From: a virus
Lineage: Duplodnaviria; Heunggongvirae; Uroviricota; Caudoviricetes; Peduoviridae
Strand: one strand, 5' to 3'
Length of the DNA stretch: 34,407 nt
Virus record (IMG/VR): IMGVR_UViG_2541047772_000007
Shown: piece by piece, positions 6,516 to 33,507 of the stretch
Position numbering within the stretch: position 1 is the stretch's first letter
Layout: the number at the start of each line of letters is the position of its first letter
Translations under genes and position numbers: made by a program
The notes under the pieces: generated by a model
Database searches by the model: none
What the model was told of the DNA's origin: nothing
What the model saw: the letters and a program-made list of their open reading frames with translations, nothing else

Positions 6516-7034
6516 TCACAGGCCGATATTTCGGCGGTGTTGCTCCAGCCGGTCGACGCCGTTCACCTTCTCAATCATGTTGATGGTGTCGATTTCGACC
6601 AGCTCCTTACCGTCCATCGTCAGCCGGAAATAGGTGCAGACCACGGAGATTTTCGACTCGGTGTCTTCTCCCTGTTTACCCTCGCCGGTATCGATTTCTT
6701 TCTGACGTCCACGCATGACCACTTCGACGGCCACCGTTTCGCCGGTATCGTCGCGCTGGTAAGAGCCTGCAAAACGAATCGGCACGGCATCCACACCGGT
6801 TGCGGCGTAAAGCTCCCAGATAACCGAATCCGGGAAGCCCCCGAGCGACCACTCCATTGACAGCGCATCGTCATCAAGGCCGAGGTCTACCGGTGCGCTG
6901 CCGTTCATCCCCGCACCGCGATAGTTTTCGAGCTTACGGGTCAGTTTTGGTAGCGTGACGGACTTCGCGACGCCCTGATAGCTGTAGCCGTTCAGAAAGA
7001 CGTTCATTAACTTGAGTTTGCGCGGCATTGCCAT
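6516..7034 (-). CDS. FII: Tail tube protein FII (172 aa)
   Basis: Length and synteny with P2 FII, directly downstream of FI. Confidence 0.9.
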   Translation of the reverse strand: MAMPRKLKLMNVFLNGYSYQGVAKSVTLPKLTRKLENYRGAGMNGSAPVDLGLDDDALSMEWSLGGFPDSVIWELYAATGVDAVPIRFAGSYQRDDTGETVAVEVVMRGRQKEIDTGEGKQGEDTESKISVVCTYFRLTMDGKELVEIDTINMIEKVNGVDRLEQHRRNIGL

Positions 7035-7046
7035 CGGTCAGGCTCC

Positions 7047-8237
7047 TTAATTGCTGTTAACCGAGGTGACCAGATTTGCCAGGTATTTATCGGTAATACG
7101 CTGGCGCAGGGTCAGGTTTTCAAGAGGAGGCACCGGTGTATAGTCGTAGTCGATATACAGTTTTCCGGCCTTGAGGGTTTCCGCATCGTTGGATTCTTCA
7201 CTGAACCAGCAGGTCGCATCCACGATATAGCCGTTTGTTTTCAGCTCTCGGAATTTGGCATTGATGCCGTCAACGATGTCGCGAATCAGCGTTGCGGTGA
7301 TGGGCTTGTCCACCGCCCACATGTGCGCCTCAGCCATCGTGTCGGCCAGCACCTGCGCGGTGCGGGTGTAGTTTTCAAAGAGGAACAGCGGGTCATCAGA
7401 GCAGGTACGGTTACCCCAGAAGCGGAAACCGTCACGACGAATCAGCGTTGTGACGCCTGACTCGTTCAGCAGGTCAGCATCGGTGCCGGACTCCTGCAAA
7501 TCCCAGAATACAGATGCGCTGATGCCGGTAACACCGTTCACCCCGACGTTGGACAGCGTTTTATGCCAGCCCTGCTCCTGGTCGATTTTAGAGCGCAGCC
7601 CCAGCGCACGGGCGGTGGCATACGCGGTGGCGGTGGTACTGGTGACAGTATCCCATGCGAGGAAATCCGGCCAGATGACCATCAGCTCACGCTGGCTGAA
7701 ATTCTGGCGGTAAGCTTTCACCTCGGAAATGGTTTTACATCCCCATGCGCTGATATACCCGAAAGCGCGCAGCTTCTGACAGACTGATGCCAGTGCAACA
7801 GCCACCTCTTTGGTATCCAGTCCCGGCACGCCGAGAATACGCGGTTTAACACCGGTTACCGACTCTGCCGCCAGCAGGGCTTTCAGTCCGGTATACTGAC
7901 CGTTTTCGTCGGTGGTGCCGATGATATTGGAAACGGTCTGCGCGAGTTTCGTTTCCTCGTCATCACCGGTGCCGTCTTCCACGCGCACGACAACGGTGAC
8001 CGGTTTTGACTGGTCTGCGATGGCCTGCAACGATGCCGCCAGCGTGCCTTTTTTACCGGCCTTTGCAATTGCGCTCTGCACATTGGTAATCAGCACAGGT
8101 TTATTGAGGGGGAAGGTTTCCGCATCCGCATCGCTGGCCGTGCAGATCATGCCGACAATGGCAGTGGATACGGTGGAAATGACGCGGGTGCCGTCGTTAA
8201 TCTCCAGCACCTGCACGCCGTGATGATAGTCACTCAT
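7047..8237 (-). CDS. FI: Contractile tail sheath protein FI (396 aa)
   Basis: 396 aa, same length as P2 FI; N-terminus MSDYHHGVQVLEINDGTRVI... is sheath-like. Confidence 0.9.
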   Translation of the reverse strand: MSDYHHGVQVLEINDGTRVISTVSTAIVGMICTASDADAETFPLNKPVLITNVQSAIAKAGKKGTLAASLQAIADQSKPVTVVVRVEDGTGDDEETKLAQTVSNIIGTTDENGQYTGLKALLAAESVTGVKPRILGVPGLDTKEVAVALASVCQKLRAFGYISAWGCKTISEVKAYRQNFSQRELMVIWPDFLAWDTVTSTTATAYATARALGLRSKIDQEQGWHKTLSNVGVNGVTGISASVFWDLQESGTDADLLNESGVTTLIRRDGFRFWGNRTCSDDPLFLFENYTRTAQVLADTMAEAHMWAVDKPITATLIRDIVDGINAKFRELKTNGYIVDATCWFSEESNDAETLKAGKLYIDYDYTPVPPLENLTLRQRITDKYLANLVTSVNSN

Positions 8238-8330
8238 CCGTTTAACTCCGTGGTTAATGGGTGCAACTATTTTCTGTTGTGCAGAGCATGAGACGCTATT
8301 TGACCTGGCTGGTCAGTGGATGAAACAACA

Positions 8331-8360
8331 GATAAAGAAAAGGCGGGCAATTCGCCCGCC
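8331..8360 (-). terminator. Putative intrinsic terminator downstream of the Z/fun-position moron
   Basis: GC-rich hairpin GGCGGGC-loop-GCCCGCC followed on the minus strand by a T-rich run; sits about 200 nt past the moron stop and before the FI start. Confidence 0.4.
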
Positions 8361-8566
8361 TGTCCTGATTTGAACTCACTCATTTTCCGACTGACAATTT
8401 ACATAGCCCAAAAGTTATCAAATCTGACGGTCTGCTTTGAACAAGAAGCGGACATTTGCCTGTCAGGGTATATGCCGCTCTGCGGTTATTATCCAGAATC
8501 AATAATTCATCTGAGTTGGATTACATATAAAACATAGTTACCCCATGAATAACCATTAGCAGATTA

Positions 8567-9160
8567 TCAATTATGTAAATCTTTTGTTTTATGTTCTTTG
8601 GCGTGTTGTGACAACAAATGGCTATAGCGTTTAAGCAAAATATTAGAAAGATTAAGCTCATTCATGAAGTGTTCTTCTAATAAGTAACCATCAATATCAA
8701 CTTTAATATCATTACCACTTTTCATCTTCTGTAACGTAGATTTTACACGCTCCAGCAGGATGCTTTGCTCATGGTAATAGTCCATAAGAAGAGTAACATC
8801 CTCTTTATCAAGCTTACTTAATTCGCTGAAGTAGGATTTAAACACTTTATCAGTCTGGTTTAATGCAATCTGTAAGCGAGGCCCCCCTAATGATTTGACA
8901 TTAATGGCAAAAGGCTCGCCAACAAAATGCTCCGAATTTTCGTCAAAGCCAATATATCTCGTTTTATCAAGAAAAGTGAGAGCGCGATGGTTATTAGCGA
9001 TTTCATATGCAAACATTGTTCTGATACTGTCCCTCTCAGCCTCCATGCTTATATCATCACGATGATTTGTATAAAATATATTTCCAACAAAGAGAACCAT
9101 AGCAAGAATCACTGAACTTGCCTCCCAGTTAATATTTTTTAATCGTCGCTTAGTAAACAT
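8567..9160 (-). CDS. Hypothetical membrane-anchored protein (197 aa), moron at the Z/fun position between G and FI
   Basis: ATG start preceded by an AAGGTG Shine-Dalgarno; N-terminal basic stretch plus one hydrophobic helix (SSVILAMVLFVGNIFY); strongly AT-rich compared with flanking phage genes; flanked by AT-rich intergenic regions. No family recognised. Confidence 0.7.
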   Translation of the reverse strand: MFTKRRLKNINWEASSVILAMVLFVGNIFYTNHRDDISMEAERDSIRTMFAYEIANNHRALTFLDKTRYIGFDENSEHFVGEPFAINVKSLGGPRLQIALNQTDKVFKSYFSELSKLDKEDVTLLMDYYHEQSILLERVKSTLQKMKSGNDIKVDIDGYLLEEHFMNELNLSNILLKRYSHLLSQHAKEHKTKDLHN

Positions 9161-9381
9161 ACCGCACCTTAATTATCAAAAATATTCCTTCAGTGTTATC
9201 TGGTTAGCCTAAACCAAGTCATTAAAGTCTGCAGGATATCATATACATAAAATGTATTGATTAGAATTTGCACTAATAAAATAATGCTTTACTAAAATCT
9301 ACTCCAGACACAGAGCGGCCTGTCAGATTAGGCTTTACTCTGTGCCATAGATATGTTTGCTCACTCCAGAGATCATACAAC

Positions 9382-9909
9382 TTATTGCGGCATTTCCGGC
9401 CATTCAGGATTTGCAGGATCCACACGACTGACCAGAACGCTGTAACGCTCCCATGCATCCAGTCGGCTACGCTCCTCATCTGTTGCCATGTTCAGTCTGA
9501 CCGCGCGCTCCAGCGGCAAAATCACGGATTCAGCATCTGCAAGAAGTCTGGCTTTCCGGTTTTCTGCCTGCTGCAGCAATTCCTCTGCCGTATAAATGCG
9601 TTTAATCACTTTGCCGTCCTTAAACATCCAGCCCCCTGAAATGTCCGCCCGTCGGTTAGCAGTAATATCCGCCACTTCAACAACACTTAATCCATCCGGT
9701 CTGATAGCTGTCACATCCTTTTCCACATAGCGGATAATATTATCTTTGTCGTACGCTATTTTTATCGTGTCATCAGCAAAATACTTTTGTTCTTCGTACC
9801 AGTTCTTACCATCTTCTGAAAAAAACCAGACAACATCAAAACCCTTTGTCAATTGATATTGTTCAACCGTTTTTGGATTACCCGCCGTAATATTTTTTAA
9901 ATGCTGCAT
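9382..9909 (-). CDS. G: Tail fibre assembly chaperone G (175 aa)
   Basis: Immediately downstream of H; length matches P2 G; C-terminus ...[27 protein letters not shown] is typical of Tfa chaperones. Confidence 0.85.
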
Positions 9910-24949: not shown

Positions 24950-26035
24950 ATGGGTTACGAAGTTGATTTCTTAGCAGTTGGAGAAAAAAAAAGTGGAGAT
25001 GCTATCTGCATAAGATGGGGCAACCTCCACGGAACAAGAGCAGAGCAAAAAGTTGTCGTAATTGATGCGGGGTACGCAAGCACTGGTCCACAAATAATTG
25101 AACATTTACAGAAATACTATCATACAAATACTATTGACTTACTCATATCCACGCATCCAGATAGCGACCATGCTGGCGGCCTTGAGCATGTGATTGAGAA
25201 TGCGGAAGTCAAAGAGTTCTGGATTCACCAGCCTTGGGAGCATAATGAAAATCTCGCGCAGGAATTTGCTGATGGAAGGATAACAGATGCAAGTATTGCC
25301 AGACGTATACAAGATAATCTACAAAAAGCCTATGATGCCGTCAAATCAGCGAAAAAAAAAGGAATAGAAATTAAGGAGCCTTTTCAAGGCAGGACTTGGG
25401 ACAATTCTAAACTGGTTGTTATTGGACCAACACAAGCATACTATGAAACATTAATCCCCGATTTTGCAAGAATGCCTGAAAAAGCAGAAACAACTGCAAC
25501 CAGTGGTACAGATGCATATAACTACTTTTTTGAGAAAGCCAAAGAACAAGTCGAGTATATTGCTGATTGGTTCTCTGATGAGGGAATTGATGACAAGGAC
25601 ACAACTACTGCACAAAACAATTCAAGCGTTATATTAAAAATTGAAATTGACAATAAAACACTAGTATTTACAGGTGATGCAGGAATAACTGCATTAGATA
25701 TGGCTGCTGATCATATAAATAATAACTCATTATCATTTATTCAAGTGCCCCACCATGGAAGCAGGAGAAACATCGGTCCAGCGGTGCTAAATAAGCTCGT
25801 TGGAAATATTGTAAGCGAAGGAGGAAGAAGTGGTGTTTGTGCATTTATATCATGCGCACCGGATTCCGATAAACACCCTCATCAAGCGGTCATTAATGCT
25901 TTTACAAGGCGTGGAGCCAAAGTAGTCGCCACAGAAGGCACCAATAAACGCCATTCTAGTAATGCCCCCGCCAGAGATGGCTGGACTGCAGTCACCCCAC
26001 GCTCATACGCAAGGAGTTATAAGACTGAAGAATAA
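24950..26035 (+). CDS. ComEC-like metallo-beta-lactamase-fold hydrolase (361 aa), putative nuclease; cargo gene at the P2 tin/old position
   Basis: Motifs in the translation: FLAVGEKKSGDAICIRWG....VVVIDAGY, STHPDSDHAGG (HxDxDH metal-binding motif), LVFTGDAG, VPHHGS. Strongly AT-rich. This ORF is distinct from P2 tin and old (the P2 old product is an OLD-family ATPase-nuclease). Confidence 0.75.
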   Translation: MGYEVDFLAVGEKKSGDAICIRWGNLHGTRAEQKVVVIDAGYASTGPQIIEHLQKYYHTNTIDLLISTHPDSDHAGGLEHVIENAEVKEFWIHQPWEHNENLAQEFADGRITDASIARRIQDNLQKAYDAVKSAKKKGIEIKEPFQGRTWDNSKLVVIGPTQAYYETLIPDFARMPEKAETTATSGTDAYNYFFEKAKEQVEYIADWFSDEGIDDKDTTTAQNNSSVILKIEIDNKTLVFTGDAGITALDMAADHINNNSLSFIQVPHHGSRRNIGPAVLNKLVGNIVSEGGRSGVCAFISCAPDSDKHPHQAVINAFTRRGAKVVATEGTNKRHSSNAPARDGWTAVTPRSYARSYKTEE

Positions 26036-26041
26036 TTCGTT

Positions 26042-26061
26042 AAGCTGCCTTAGGGCAGCTT
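26042..26061. terminator. Bidirectional hairpin between the convergent cargo genes (AAGCTGCC-TTAG-GGCAGCTT)
   Basis: Perfect 8-bp inverted repeat in the short gap between the MBL gene stop and the membrane-protein gene stop; overlaps the last codons of the latter. Confidence 0.5.
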
Positions 26062-26538
26062 ATTATTAGCCTTACTCACTCTTAATGTAATAAACTTAAT
26101 TTGCTTAACGTACGACACAATAAAAACAAAAATCAAAAACAATGAAATCCATTTCGACGCCATGTAATCACCACCAACTACAAACGAAACAAAAAACAAA
26201 GAAAACAAAAAAACCAAGGACATAGAGAATAACGTCCTATACATATTTGCAGTTTCTTGAAGAAGCTCTATTTTATTATCCTTTCTACATGCTGAGATAT
26301 ATTCCTCATATGGAACAAATTTTACCAGCCCCAAAAACTTCAACACAGGCTCAAAAACAATAGACCCAATCCTTCCGATAATTATCCCCGTAAAATAGTA
26401 AAGTACCACATTCTTAACAACATCATCTGTGGATAATATCACATTGGTTGCCCGCTCAAACAAATAAATAAACAAAGCACCGGGAAAGAGATTGTTAAAT
26501 ATATTATAAGACGATATTTTTTCCCATAAACCATCCAT
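26050..26538 (-). CDS. Hypothetical small integral membrane protein (about 162 aa, about four predicted transmembrane helices); second cargo gene
   Basis: ATG (MDGLWEK...) preceded by an AAGGTG Shine-Dalgarno; the track ORF starts 3 codons earlier at a GTG. Hydrophobic segments LFPGALFIYLF, VVLYYFTGIIIGRIGSIVF, LFSMSLVFLFSLFFVSFVVGG, WISLFLIFVFIVSYV. AT-rich, convergent with the MBL gene. Confidence 0.7.
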   Translation of the reverse strand: MDGLWEKISSYNIFNNLFPGALFIYLFERATNVILSTDDVVKNVVLYYFTGIIIGRIGSIVFEPVLKFLGLVKFVPYEEYISACRKDNKIELLQETANMYRTLFSMSLVFLFSLFFVSFVVGGDYMASKWISLFLIFVFIVSYVKQIKFITLRVSKANNKLP

Positions 26539-26653
26539 ACAACACACCTTTTAACCAATTTTAAAGACGCCATTTTCATCAAAAGAAACAAAAATAGCAA
26601 GAACATCAGAACAAACTCTTTGAACACCTGAAAATATTATGTTCCGACACCAT

Positions 26654-31498: not shown

Positions 31499-32512
31499 AT
31501 GGCAATCAAAAAACTCGATGATGGTCGATATGAAGTGGACATCCGCCCTACTGGACGTAACGGAAAACGCATCCGTAGGAAGTTTGATAAGAAAAGCGAA
31601 GCTGTCGCTTTCGAAAAATACACGTTGTACAACCACCACAATAAAGAATGGCTATCAAAACCAACAGACAAACGACGTCTGTCGGAACTGACACAGATCT
31701 GGTGGGATTTAAAGGGTAAACACGAAGAGCATGGGAAATCTAATCTTGGAAAAATTGAAATCTTCACAAAAATAACGAATGACCCATGCGCATTTCAAAT
31801 CACGAAATCCCTTATCAGCCAGTACTGCGCCACCCGAAGAAGTCAGGGTATTAAACCTTCGAGTATCAATCGTGATTTAACATGTATTAGCGGCATGTTT
31901 ACAGCCCTGATTGAAGCGGAGTTATTCTTTGGTGAGCACCCTATCAGAGGGACAAAGAGGCTTAAGGAGGAAAAACCAGAAACAGGCTATCTCACACAGG
32001 AAGAAATTGCCTTACTGCTTGCAGCACTTGACGGCGACAATAAAAAGATTGCGATTCTTTGCCTGAGTACAGGAGCACGTTGGGGAGAAGCAGCTCGTTT
32101 GAAAGCAGAAAATATCATCCATAACCGCGTCACGTTTGTTAAAACGAAAACAAACAAACCACGCACCGTCCCGATTTCAGAGGCTGTTGCCAAAATGATC
32201 GCGGATAACAAACGAGGTTTTTTATTCCCTGATGCTGATTACCCTCGCTTCAGACGAACAATGAAAGCAATAAAACCGGATTTGCCAATGGGGCAAGCCA
32301 CACATGCACTAAGGCACAGCTTTGCCACTCATTTCATGATTAATGGAGGAAGTATTATCACGCTACAACGGATACTAGGTCACACGCGGATTGAGCAAAC
32401 TATGGTTTACGCTCATTTTGCGCCAGAGTACCTTCAGGACGCCATTTCTCTTAATCCGCTAAGAGGTGGTACTGAGGCCGAGAGTGTCCACACAGTGTCC
32501 ACAGTAGAGTAA
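31499..32512 (+). CDS. int: Tyrosine integrase (337 aa)
   Basis: GGAGGG Shine-Dalgarno then ATG; C-terminal catalytic motifs HALRHSFAT and LGHTRIEQTMVYAHF; ends about 80 bp before the att core. Confidence 0.9.
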   Translation: MAIKKLDDGRYEVDIRPTGRNGKRIRRKFDKKSEAVAFEKYTLYNHHNKEWLSKPTDKRRLSELTQIWWDLKGKHEEHGKSNLGKIEIFTKITNDPCAFQITKSLISQYCATRRSQGIKPSSINRDLTCISGMFTALIEAELFFGEHPIRGTKRLKEEKPETGYLTQEEIALLLAALDGDNKKIAILCLSTGARWGEAARLKAENIIHNRVTFVKTKTNKPRTVPISEAVAKMIADNKRGFLFPDADYPRFRRTMKAIKPDLPMGQATHALRHSFATHFMINGGSIITLQRILGHTRIEQTMVYAHFAPEYLQDAISLNPLRGGTEAESVHTVSTVE

Positions 32513-32775: not shown

Positions 32776-33093
32776 TCACTCTCCACATTTGAATGTCAGA
32801 CGAGCGACGCCATGTAATCCTGCACCTTCTGTCTTCAGGTCAACTATCTGCATTTTTTTGCCCTGAGTAACACAGAAATGAGCTGCATCATTTTTTACTA
32901 TATTTTCTGCACCAGAAATTCTGCCCCTGGCTAAAGAAGCTTCGGCTTCGGTGTAGTATTGGTTATCGAGTTTACGCTGAATATTACTTTTATATGCAAG
33001 ACCAAATTTACCGATACTTGTCTCATCATTATGTACAGCACACCCAGACATAAGAAAAACACTAATTAATGATATAGCAGCTATCTTTTTCAT
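32776..33093 (-). CDS. yegR: Lipoprotein YegR (host gene, 105 aa)
   Basis: MKKIAAISLISVFLMSGC... carries a signal peptide and lipobox; recognised as E. coli YegR. Track ORF trimmed to this ATG. Confidence 0.8.
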   Translation of the reverse strand: MKKIAAISLISVFLMSGCAVHNDETSIGKFGLAYKSNIQRKLDNQYYTEAEASLARGRISGAENIVKNDAAHFCVTQGKKMQIVDLKTEGAGLHGVARLTFKCGE

Positions 33094-33507
33094 CTTACCT
33101 TCCCCCATTAAATACCAACGACACGCTCTGGTGTTAAAATATAATAATGGCATGATTATTATAATTGAATAGGATTATAATAAATGTTCTGTACAACATT
33201 TCCTACATAAGTAGGAATTACATACACGGAGGCCCTTCCGGGTAACCCCATGGGGGGGTTAATATATTTTTAATAGTATATTGAAGATGCCACTGTTTAG
33301 TTGAATATTAGGTATATGCTCTTTTTTGAAATTTACCTATGGCTACCGTTAACATTCACTGTCCCCATTGCAAGCTCCTGGTGGTAACCACTGAATCCTC
33401 TATACTTGAACTGATTTTTTATCCTCCGACTTTCATCCTGTTCTGACTCCACCTTTTCTTTTCTGCTCTACACTATCTACAGACCAATCATAAAGGCACA
33501 TACGATC

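Follow-up and report, generated by a model that had tools for sequence, protein, structure and literature searches.

The 34,407-nt stretch of viral DNA analyzed here (IMG/VR record IMGVR_UViG_2541047772_000007, Peduoviridae), called the window below, holds a complete P2-like prophage that runs from ogr at ~1635 to the integrase gene at 31499-32512 and has host genes on both sides. Our subject is ORF197, an open reading frame on the minus strand at 8567-9160 that starts with ATG and encodes a predicted bitopic membrane protein of 197 aa (phrog_3829; RefSeq WP_000494502.1), for which we consider a role in superinfection exclusion. ORF197 lies in the gap between genes G and FI, the position that in phage P2 is the Z/fun slot. 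The upstream boundary of this slot is a G-like tail fiber assembly gene (9382-9909, minus strand; Pfam Caudo_TAP, E=3e-34), and the downstream boundary is the FI tail sheath gene (7047-8237, minus strand; Pfam Phage_sheath_1, Phage_sheath_1C, and Gp18_domIII_N), beyond which follows the tube gene (6516-7034, minus strand; also identified with Pfam). Both the Pfam matches of these neighbors and the homology of the two flanks to P2 place ORF197 in the slot, with the annotated P2 genome NC_001895 serving as the reference for blastn searches and alignments. Homology to P2 extends through FI up to window position 8452 and returns at ~9305-9309 toward G. What lies between is a swapped cargo module of ~850 bp with 34% GC (8453-9308), and its counterpart in P2 is a 2.1 kb segment that carries the annotated V-operon terminator and fun(Z). 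Other P2-like phages have only the flanks in common with the slot of the window. By alignment to P2, the slot sits between two late operons, namely the end of V-W-J-I-H-G, which the annotated P2 record shows to stop after G, and the Ogr-dependent promoter pF of FI-FII-E-T-U-D. An earlier reading made from the sequence alone (the sequence-only reading) had placed the gene within the late tail operon, and this part of it has to be corrected accordingly. The pF region itself can be located in front of FI at 8261-8330 (minus strand) by homology only, through carrying over the P2 annotation, with the Ogr activator site at ~8305-8330 and the transcription start at ~8261-8263.

The sequence-only reading also described an AT-rich single-gene insert at the Z/fun position, and the alignment of the P2 flanks together with the base composition bears this out. 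GC content is 0.35 for ORF197 and 0.34 for the swapped module, compared with 0.52 for the window and 0.56 for FI, and the gap is wider still at third codon positions (GC3 of 0.34 for ORF197 versus 0.67 for FI). Deviant composition of this kind, at a junction where relatives have no gene or a different one, fits a moron-type insertion, and ORF197 is compositionally foreign, horizontally acquired single-gene cargo. The 197-aa reading frame itself is also real, as had been claimed, on the combined evidence of the open reading frame list, the existence of homologues, and the substitution pattern. Between genera, the dN/dS of the ORF197 family is 0.12-0.15 while the identity of homologues falls to ~25%. 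Such values indicate purifying selection, and ORF197 is therefore a real gene with a selected function. Annotation of the start codon is uneven among the homologues. The records of phages SIDE7 (locus extract L014, 1549-2094) and AC1 (locus extract L015, 1549-2094) begin at the internal Met21 and give a protein of 181 aa, a start that halves the transmembrane helix. An Enterobacter plasmid copy (locus extract L009, 5001-5486) has been called at 161 aa, and here tblastn spans residues 2-197 and a TTG start recovers the conserved N-terminus.

ORF197 belongs to a very small family. Its match to phrog_3829, a PHROG family of unknown function, covers residues 1-197 of 197 (E=2e-137), and beyond it the PHROGs hold one weak match to another family of unknown function. 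A profile search of 1.84 billion representative proteins returned 29 matches for the phrog_3829-type family. ORF197 falls in a 569-member cluster at 90% identity, and the identical protein occurs on 744 contigs. Wherever a family member is listed under an organism name, that organism belongs to the Enterobacterales (Escherichia, Salmonella, Pantoea, Kosakonia, Pluralibacter, Enterobacter, Dickeya, Pectobacterium, and Proteus). No family for ORF197 was found in Pfam (E≤0.1) or NCBIfam, and a sequence profile search of the PDB gave nothing below E=0.1, the best match being at E=0.13. The defense-system annotation suggested by the sequence-only reading came back empty, with 0 families of PADLOC-DB v2.0.0 matching at E≤1; when 20 family members were run against Pfam and PADLOC, scattered single weak matches appeared and none was consistent. 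Nor was there a match to superinfection-exclusion families (Imm, SieB, SieA, gp15/YebO, and Cor), the coverage of these by Pfam and PHROG being assumed. Homology to P2 Fun(Z), which the sequence-only reading had left open, was assessed by direct alignment and rejected: the best BLASTP match to NP_046777.1 has E=3.3 over 19 residues. ORF197 is unrelated to Fun(Z) and therefore a different cargo in the same slot. At the level of sequence comparison, then, ORF197 is without homology to Fun(Z) or to any catalogued defense or exclusion family.

The comparison with Fun(Z) is nonetheless useful for what the two genes share and do not share. Both are nonessential cargo in the G/FI slot between the same backbone flanks. 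Fun(Z), however, is a protein of 528 aa whose gene runs against the late genes; ORF197, at 197 aa, reads in the same direction as G and FI. The P2 record (NC_001895) credits Fun(Z) with a block of T5 growth and with sensitivity to FUdR. Since there is no sequence similarity between the two proteins, the T5 phenotype is not transferable to ORF197.

The sequence-only reading gave the protein a basic N-terminus followed by one membrane helix and then ~165 aa of soluble domain, and hydropathy, charge, and an AF2 model all agree with this layout. Only one stretch of ORF197 is hydrophobic (residues 12-30, Kyte-Doolittle 1.54), the runner-up reaching 0.38. Four Lys/Arg residues and no acidic residue (+4/0) precede the helix, and the first 20 residues after it carry +3/-5. 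A single hydrophobic helix with a positive-inside bias is the signature of a bitopic protein. Distant relatives have N-tails that are even more basic, and three of them end in CxxxxC pairs; both features fit a periplasmic C-terminal domain. From these sequence features, ORF197 is probably a type-II (N-in/C-out) inner-membrane protein whose helical domain faces the periplasm. The AF2 model built from the more diverse alignment (pLDDT 81.8, pTM 0.71) shows a long helix at residues 12-66 that passes from the membrane straight into a bundle, which the helices at 89-100, 105-116, 119-148, and 151-178 complete. The soluble part is thus modeled as a four-helix bundle of ~150 aa on a rigid stalk, with no enzymatic fold. 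The model resembles 4HB_MCP-type periplasmic sensor domains (PcaY, PilJ, and Tsr) at a sequence identity of 6-12%. This match is generic because designed helical bundles score equally well or better. In contrast to the 4HB domains of chemoreceptors and histidine kinases, ORF197 also lacks a second transmembrane helix and a cytoplasmic signaling module.

The most conserved region of the family is the transmembrane helix (NWEAxSVIxAMxLFxxN), at 2.76 bits per column versus 2.2-2.6 for the other helices. Over residues 11-31 (window ~9068-9130), identity reaches 62% in relatives that are ~26% identical elsewhere. Conservation of this degree is unusual for a passive anchor. The helix carries S16xxxA20 and N27 and is followed by a conserved stripe of R47, E53, and N57 in the membrane-adjacent helix. 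In light of what is generally understood about the packing of transmembrane helices, the conserved helix with its S16xxxA20 and N27 points to specific pairing with another helix, within the membrane or at its surface.

Where the gene travels is as informative as what it encodes. The complete cargo is present in 201 of 5426 complete Escherichia coli genomes (3.7%), always on the chromosome, and these 201 make up about one-fifth of the 1018 genomes that match the flanks. It is also found in 13 Peduovirus phage records, while most P2-like phages are without it. Among species-representative genomes, ORF197-family loci number only two, as expected of a rare accessory gene. The Z/fun slot is the second defense hotspot (#2) of P2, with three validated systems (PMC9519451), and it houses 16% of P2 defense systems (PMC13586616). 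In every context that we inspected, the ORF197 homologue is a lone gene. In P4-like satellites of Pantoea ananatis, Kosakonia sp., and K. oryzendophytica it closes the gene order, placed between the alpha primase gene and the element end, which is the position described as the P4 defense hotspot (PMC13586616, 2026 NAR). Indeed, the P2 tail-gene slot and the P4 primase-att slot have both been called defense hotspots in the literature (PMC9519451; PMC13586616; 10.1101/2024.10.15.618418). Elsewhere, the homologue stands where a Salmonella lambdoid prophage ends, next to genes for a DNA methylase and a DUF4928 protein, within the tail module of a Pectobacterium siphophage where it is antisense to the tail genes, among the Tra genes of a Salmonella conjugative element, and on an IncFII plasmid near IS91 and VapC. 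In Dickeya it adjoins SIR2 and DUF87/HerA genes, and in Proteus mirabilis it adjoins genes for a putAbiC protein and an HD-domain protein. A link between the cargo and one type of tail fiber was examined and dismissed, as the same cargo occurs beside H genes of 2046, 2319, and 2760 nt. The identical gene also appears in two E. coli records labeled as plasmids, CP083533.1 (3714 bp) and CP088669.1 (730 kb), which we would guess to be misassigned or misassembled chromosomal prophage rather than true plasmid carriage.

The association with the published P2 and P4 defense hotspots is the main argument for an anti-phage role, and the reading that we prefer, at a probability of roughly 45%, is that ORF197 is an envelope-level superinfection exclusion protein of a P2-like prophage, carried as cargo in defense hotspot #2. 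ORF197 would protect the lysogen, or the host of any other carrier element, at the cell envelope. Its membrane helix and membrane-adjacent bundle would bind a component of the incoming phage, such as the tape measure or ejection proteins, during genome delivery; alternatively, the target could be the host inner-membrane conduit that these proteins use. In either version, binding would block DNA entry, so that exclusion would be achieved by binding and not by catalysis. A broader proposal, offered more as a working idea than as a firm expectation, is that ORF197 may found an unrecognized, Enterobacterales-only family of single-protein envelope immunity, in which the conserved helix and the periplasmic bundle would intercept the genome-delivery machinery or the host conduit and whose single gene would pass between P2-like phages, other prophages, P4-like satellites, plasmids, and conjugative elements.

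Known proteins offer several points of comparison for exclusion at this step. HK97 gp15 (YebO-like) is, like ORF197, a small inner-membrane protein encoded by a single gene of foreign composition in the tail region, and it prevents the genome from entering while leaving the receptors of the outer membrane alone (PMC3594210). The relative of ORF197 in the Pectobacterium siphophage has a tail-module location like that of the HK97 gene. In contrast to that likeness, gp15 has no homology to ORF197, for which a large folded four-helix bundle is predicted. T4 Imm and Sp, P22 SieA (PMC10883804), lactococcal Sie2009, and Ltp follow a common logic in which a membrane-anchored protein of a phage or prophage acts at the DNA-injection step, yet ORF197 matches no Pfam or PHROG family of these proteins (E≤0.1-1). 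As to architecture, Sp and Sie2009 combine an N-terminal anchor with an extracytoplasmic domain, whereas SieA and Imm are polytopic or smaller. A last comparison is with SNIPE, a DUF4041 membrane-bound nuclease of E. coli that is reported to act at the injection site, where its partners are ManYZ and the tape measure protein (PMC13190303). SNIPE resembles the proposed ORF197 in being a single-protein, membrane-anchored defense, and it shows that defenses do place themselves at the site of injection. It differs in having a nuclease domain that cleaves DNA, whereas ORF197 has no enzymatic fold or PADLOC match and carries its globular domain, by prediction, in the periplasm.

The membrane helix that figures in the exclusion proposal can also be read in another way. 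ORF197 could be an abortive-infection effector that senses a cue of infection, oligomerizes through its transmembrane helices, and depolarizes or permeabilizes the inner membrane so that the cell dies before phage release. The transmembrane helix being the most conserved part of the protein fits this mechanism, in which its Asn and its small-xxx-small motifs would drive oligomerization, and so does the occurrence of the gene as single-gene cargo in defense hotspots and islets, in one case with an AbiC-like gene as neighbor. Rousset et al. also note that transmembrane proteins in known defense systems are believed to be suicide effectors. However, the one globular domain of the protein, predicted to lie in the periplasm, would be badly placed for cytoplasmic phage cues, a gene for a partner sensor is absent in all contexts examined, and a single helix of moderate hydrophobicity would make a weak pore former. 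We therefore judge an abortive-infection effector to be decidedly unlikely, and exclusion is favored over classic abortive infection because the sole globular domain is predicted to lie in the periplasm.

Indirect information on phenotype comes from the lysogens of Rousset et al. 2022, since the ORF197 gene is carried by two of their phages, AC1 (95% amino acid identity) and SIDE7 (99.5%). Lysogens of four P2-like phages in E. coli C were challenged with lambda, T4, P1, 186, T7, CLB_P2, LF82_P8, and AL505_P2, a panel that does not include T5. The AC1 lysogen alone was protected, against lambda and LF82_P8, and the cloned TIR system from hotspot #1 reproduced this protection; the SIDE7 result is not explicitly displayed in the publication. 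Several points have to be set against the exclusion reading, and the first follows from this experiment: because the TIR system accounts for the AC1 phenotype, no protection attributable to ORF197 is left for any of the eight panel phages. Selection with T4, lambda-vir, and T7 gave Vassallo et al. 21 systems, and ORF197 is not one of them. A literature search found no paper naming WP_000494502 or phrog_3829, and the examined supplements of Vassallo 2022 and of DefensePredictor contain neither WP_000494502 nor WP_097766104 nor the phrase "lysogenic conversion." As for the protein, its topology is deduced from the positive-inside rule alone and the hydrophobicity of its helix, at 1.54, is moderate, and a four-helix bundle is a fold that carries no specific functional information. 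Expression of the gene in a lysogen is likewise something that we infer.

The same lysogens, which show no anti-phage phenotype attributable to ORF197, agree with a function in lysogenic conversion that is not chiefly directed at phages. ORF197 would then benefit the host by changing the physiology of the envelope or by serving as an orphan immunity protein against bacteriocins, tailocins, or contact-dependent or type VI secretion system (T6SS) toxins that act in the periplasm. The NCBI records WP_097766104.1 and WP_000494502.1 vary in what they call the family, the label being either "lysogenic conversion protein" or "hypothetical protein," and our literature search found no source or paper justifying the former name. 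An N-terminal anchor with a small periplasmic helical domain is also an architecture that fits periplasmic immunity proteins, and the P2 hotspots are known to hold nondefense cargo as well, such as cdtABC. Yet no toxin or bacteriocin gene adjoins the homologue in any context examined, its recurring neighbors are genes of the phage-defense type and defense hotspots, and there is no similarity to any Pfam immunity family. We regard this explanation, on balance, as unlikely. Beside it we can set the prophage of E. coli A10 (NZ_CP028764.1), in which an identical ORF197 module is accompanied in hotspot #1 by cdtABC, encoding a type V cytolethal distending toxin (locus extract L013, 36843-38985).

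How ORF197 might be transcribed bears on a further alternative. The good Shine-Dalgarno sequence of the sequence-only reading is present, as AAGGTG at 9165-9170 (minus strand), and direct reading of the sequence puts it 4 bases before the ATG. The promoter that the gene was thought to have upstream fares less well. A promoter scan picks out one sigma-70-like match, ATAACA-16-GATAAT (9172-9199, minus strand; 9/12), a candidate promoter only, whose -10 element abuts the Shine-Dalgarno sequence. Upstream of ORF197, 2 promoter-like sites are observed versus 4.1 in shuffled sequences, so that the evidence for an own promoter does not exceed what chance would give. The idea of a promoter moving together with the gene was rejected. 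When the sequences upstream of the gene in five contexts are aligned, they agree in the final ~30 nt only, and the features common to the copies elsewhere are a T-run, a GATAAT-like element, and the Shine-Dalgarno sequence, with nothing else. Downstream, the hairpin terminator that had been proposed does exist, as an intrinsic terminator found by terminator scan and folding just upstream of pF (GGCGGGC-GAAUU-GCCCGCC followed by a U-run, 8331-8361, minus strand). Its hairpin at 8341-8361 has nine pairs and a T-run (-20.1 kcal/mol, z -5.6). Where the proposal fails is in assigning it to the gene: the terminator lies 206 nt beyond the ORF197 stop and is part of the backbone and not of the cargo, because P2 has the same DNA. 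Terminator scan and folding revealed no terminator-like structure on the coding strand in 8453-8566. The cargo is thus without its own terminator, and the one at 8341-8361 would end any transcript that covers ORF197. On the other side of the cargo, a second backbone hairpin directly follows the stop of G (9304-9350, minus strand; -22.6 kcal/mol, z -3.25) and is conserved in P2. This hairpin has no U-tract, was not called by the terminator scan, and is not the V-operon terminator of the P2 annotation; it may dampen V-operon transcription that continues toward ORF197, or it may shield an RNA end. Because nothing but a hairpin without a U-tract stands between the G stop and the reading frame, late V-operon transcripts could extend into ORF197. 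Rfam returned only sub-threshold chance matches on both noncoding flanks.

Read-through of this kind would suit a gene that serves the element's own life cycle. ORF197 could in that case be an envelope protein made late, which might for instance keep progeny virions from injecting into debris and lysing cells or tune lysis. ORF197 shares its orientation with G and FI, no canonical terminator separates it from G, and the segment that was replaced in the window is the one in which P2 has its annotated V-operon terminator. The distribution of the family speaks against such a role. P4-like satellites, a conjugative element, a plasmid, and chromosomal islets all carry the gene without P2 late transcription, the copy in the Pectobacterium prophage runs antisense to the tail genes, and ORF197 is missing from most P2-like phages. 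A life-cycle function is very improbable on these grounds, and we keep superinfection exclusion as the preferred reading.

Other parts of the prophage and its relatives deserve brief mention. In hotspot #1, the gap between the portal gene Q and the replication gene A, the window has a convergent gene pair at 24950-26547 that encodes proteins of 361 and 165 aa. The 361-aa protein has a metallo-beta-lactamase fold and matches PADLOC PDC-M48B (E=6e-99), and the 165-aa protein matches PDC-M48A (E=7e-49). By these matches the two form a candidate defense pair. Hotspots #1 and #2 assort independently, because the ORF197 module is combined with PDC-M48 in the window and with cdtABC in A10. A 125-aa open reading frame at 32776-33153 (minus strand) lies just outside the integrase gene, toward a yegS-like host gene, and has no Pfam or PADLOC match. 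The interval between integrase and att has been described as a minor P2 defense hotspot (PMC13586616). In E. coli EECO1006 (NZ_CP090319.1, 1937241-1939161), an IS1 transposase gene splits the match to the 1144-bp intergenic segment of the window that holds the module into two pieces, which is an IS insertion in or beside the module. Finally, an imperfect 19-nt inverted repeat in backbone DNA brackets the cargo (8421-8439 and 9311-9329, 15/19); because 27 of 60 shuffles also reach at least 15, it is at chance level.

ORF197 is, in sum, an uncharacterized cargo gene of an orphan family and a candidate exclusion protein in a known hotspot, and it does not represent a new kind of system. The Z/fun slot is recognized as a P2 defense hotspot and is much less explored, and here a gene that fills about one-fifth of the matching slots is assigned to no known defense family by PADLOC or the other libraries scanned. 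Should ORF197 fail to protect against a broad panel of phages, the lesson would be that hotspot position and a membrane anchor alone do not predict defense. If the exclusion reading is true, ORF197 would represent a new exclusion family that acts by binding and would provide a handle on the inner-membrane step of phage DNA entry, which is still poorly understood.

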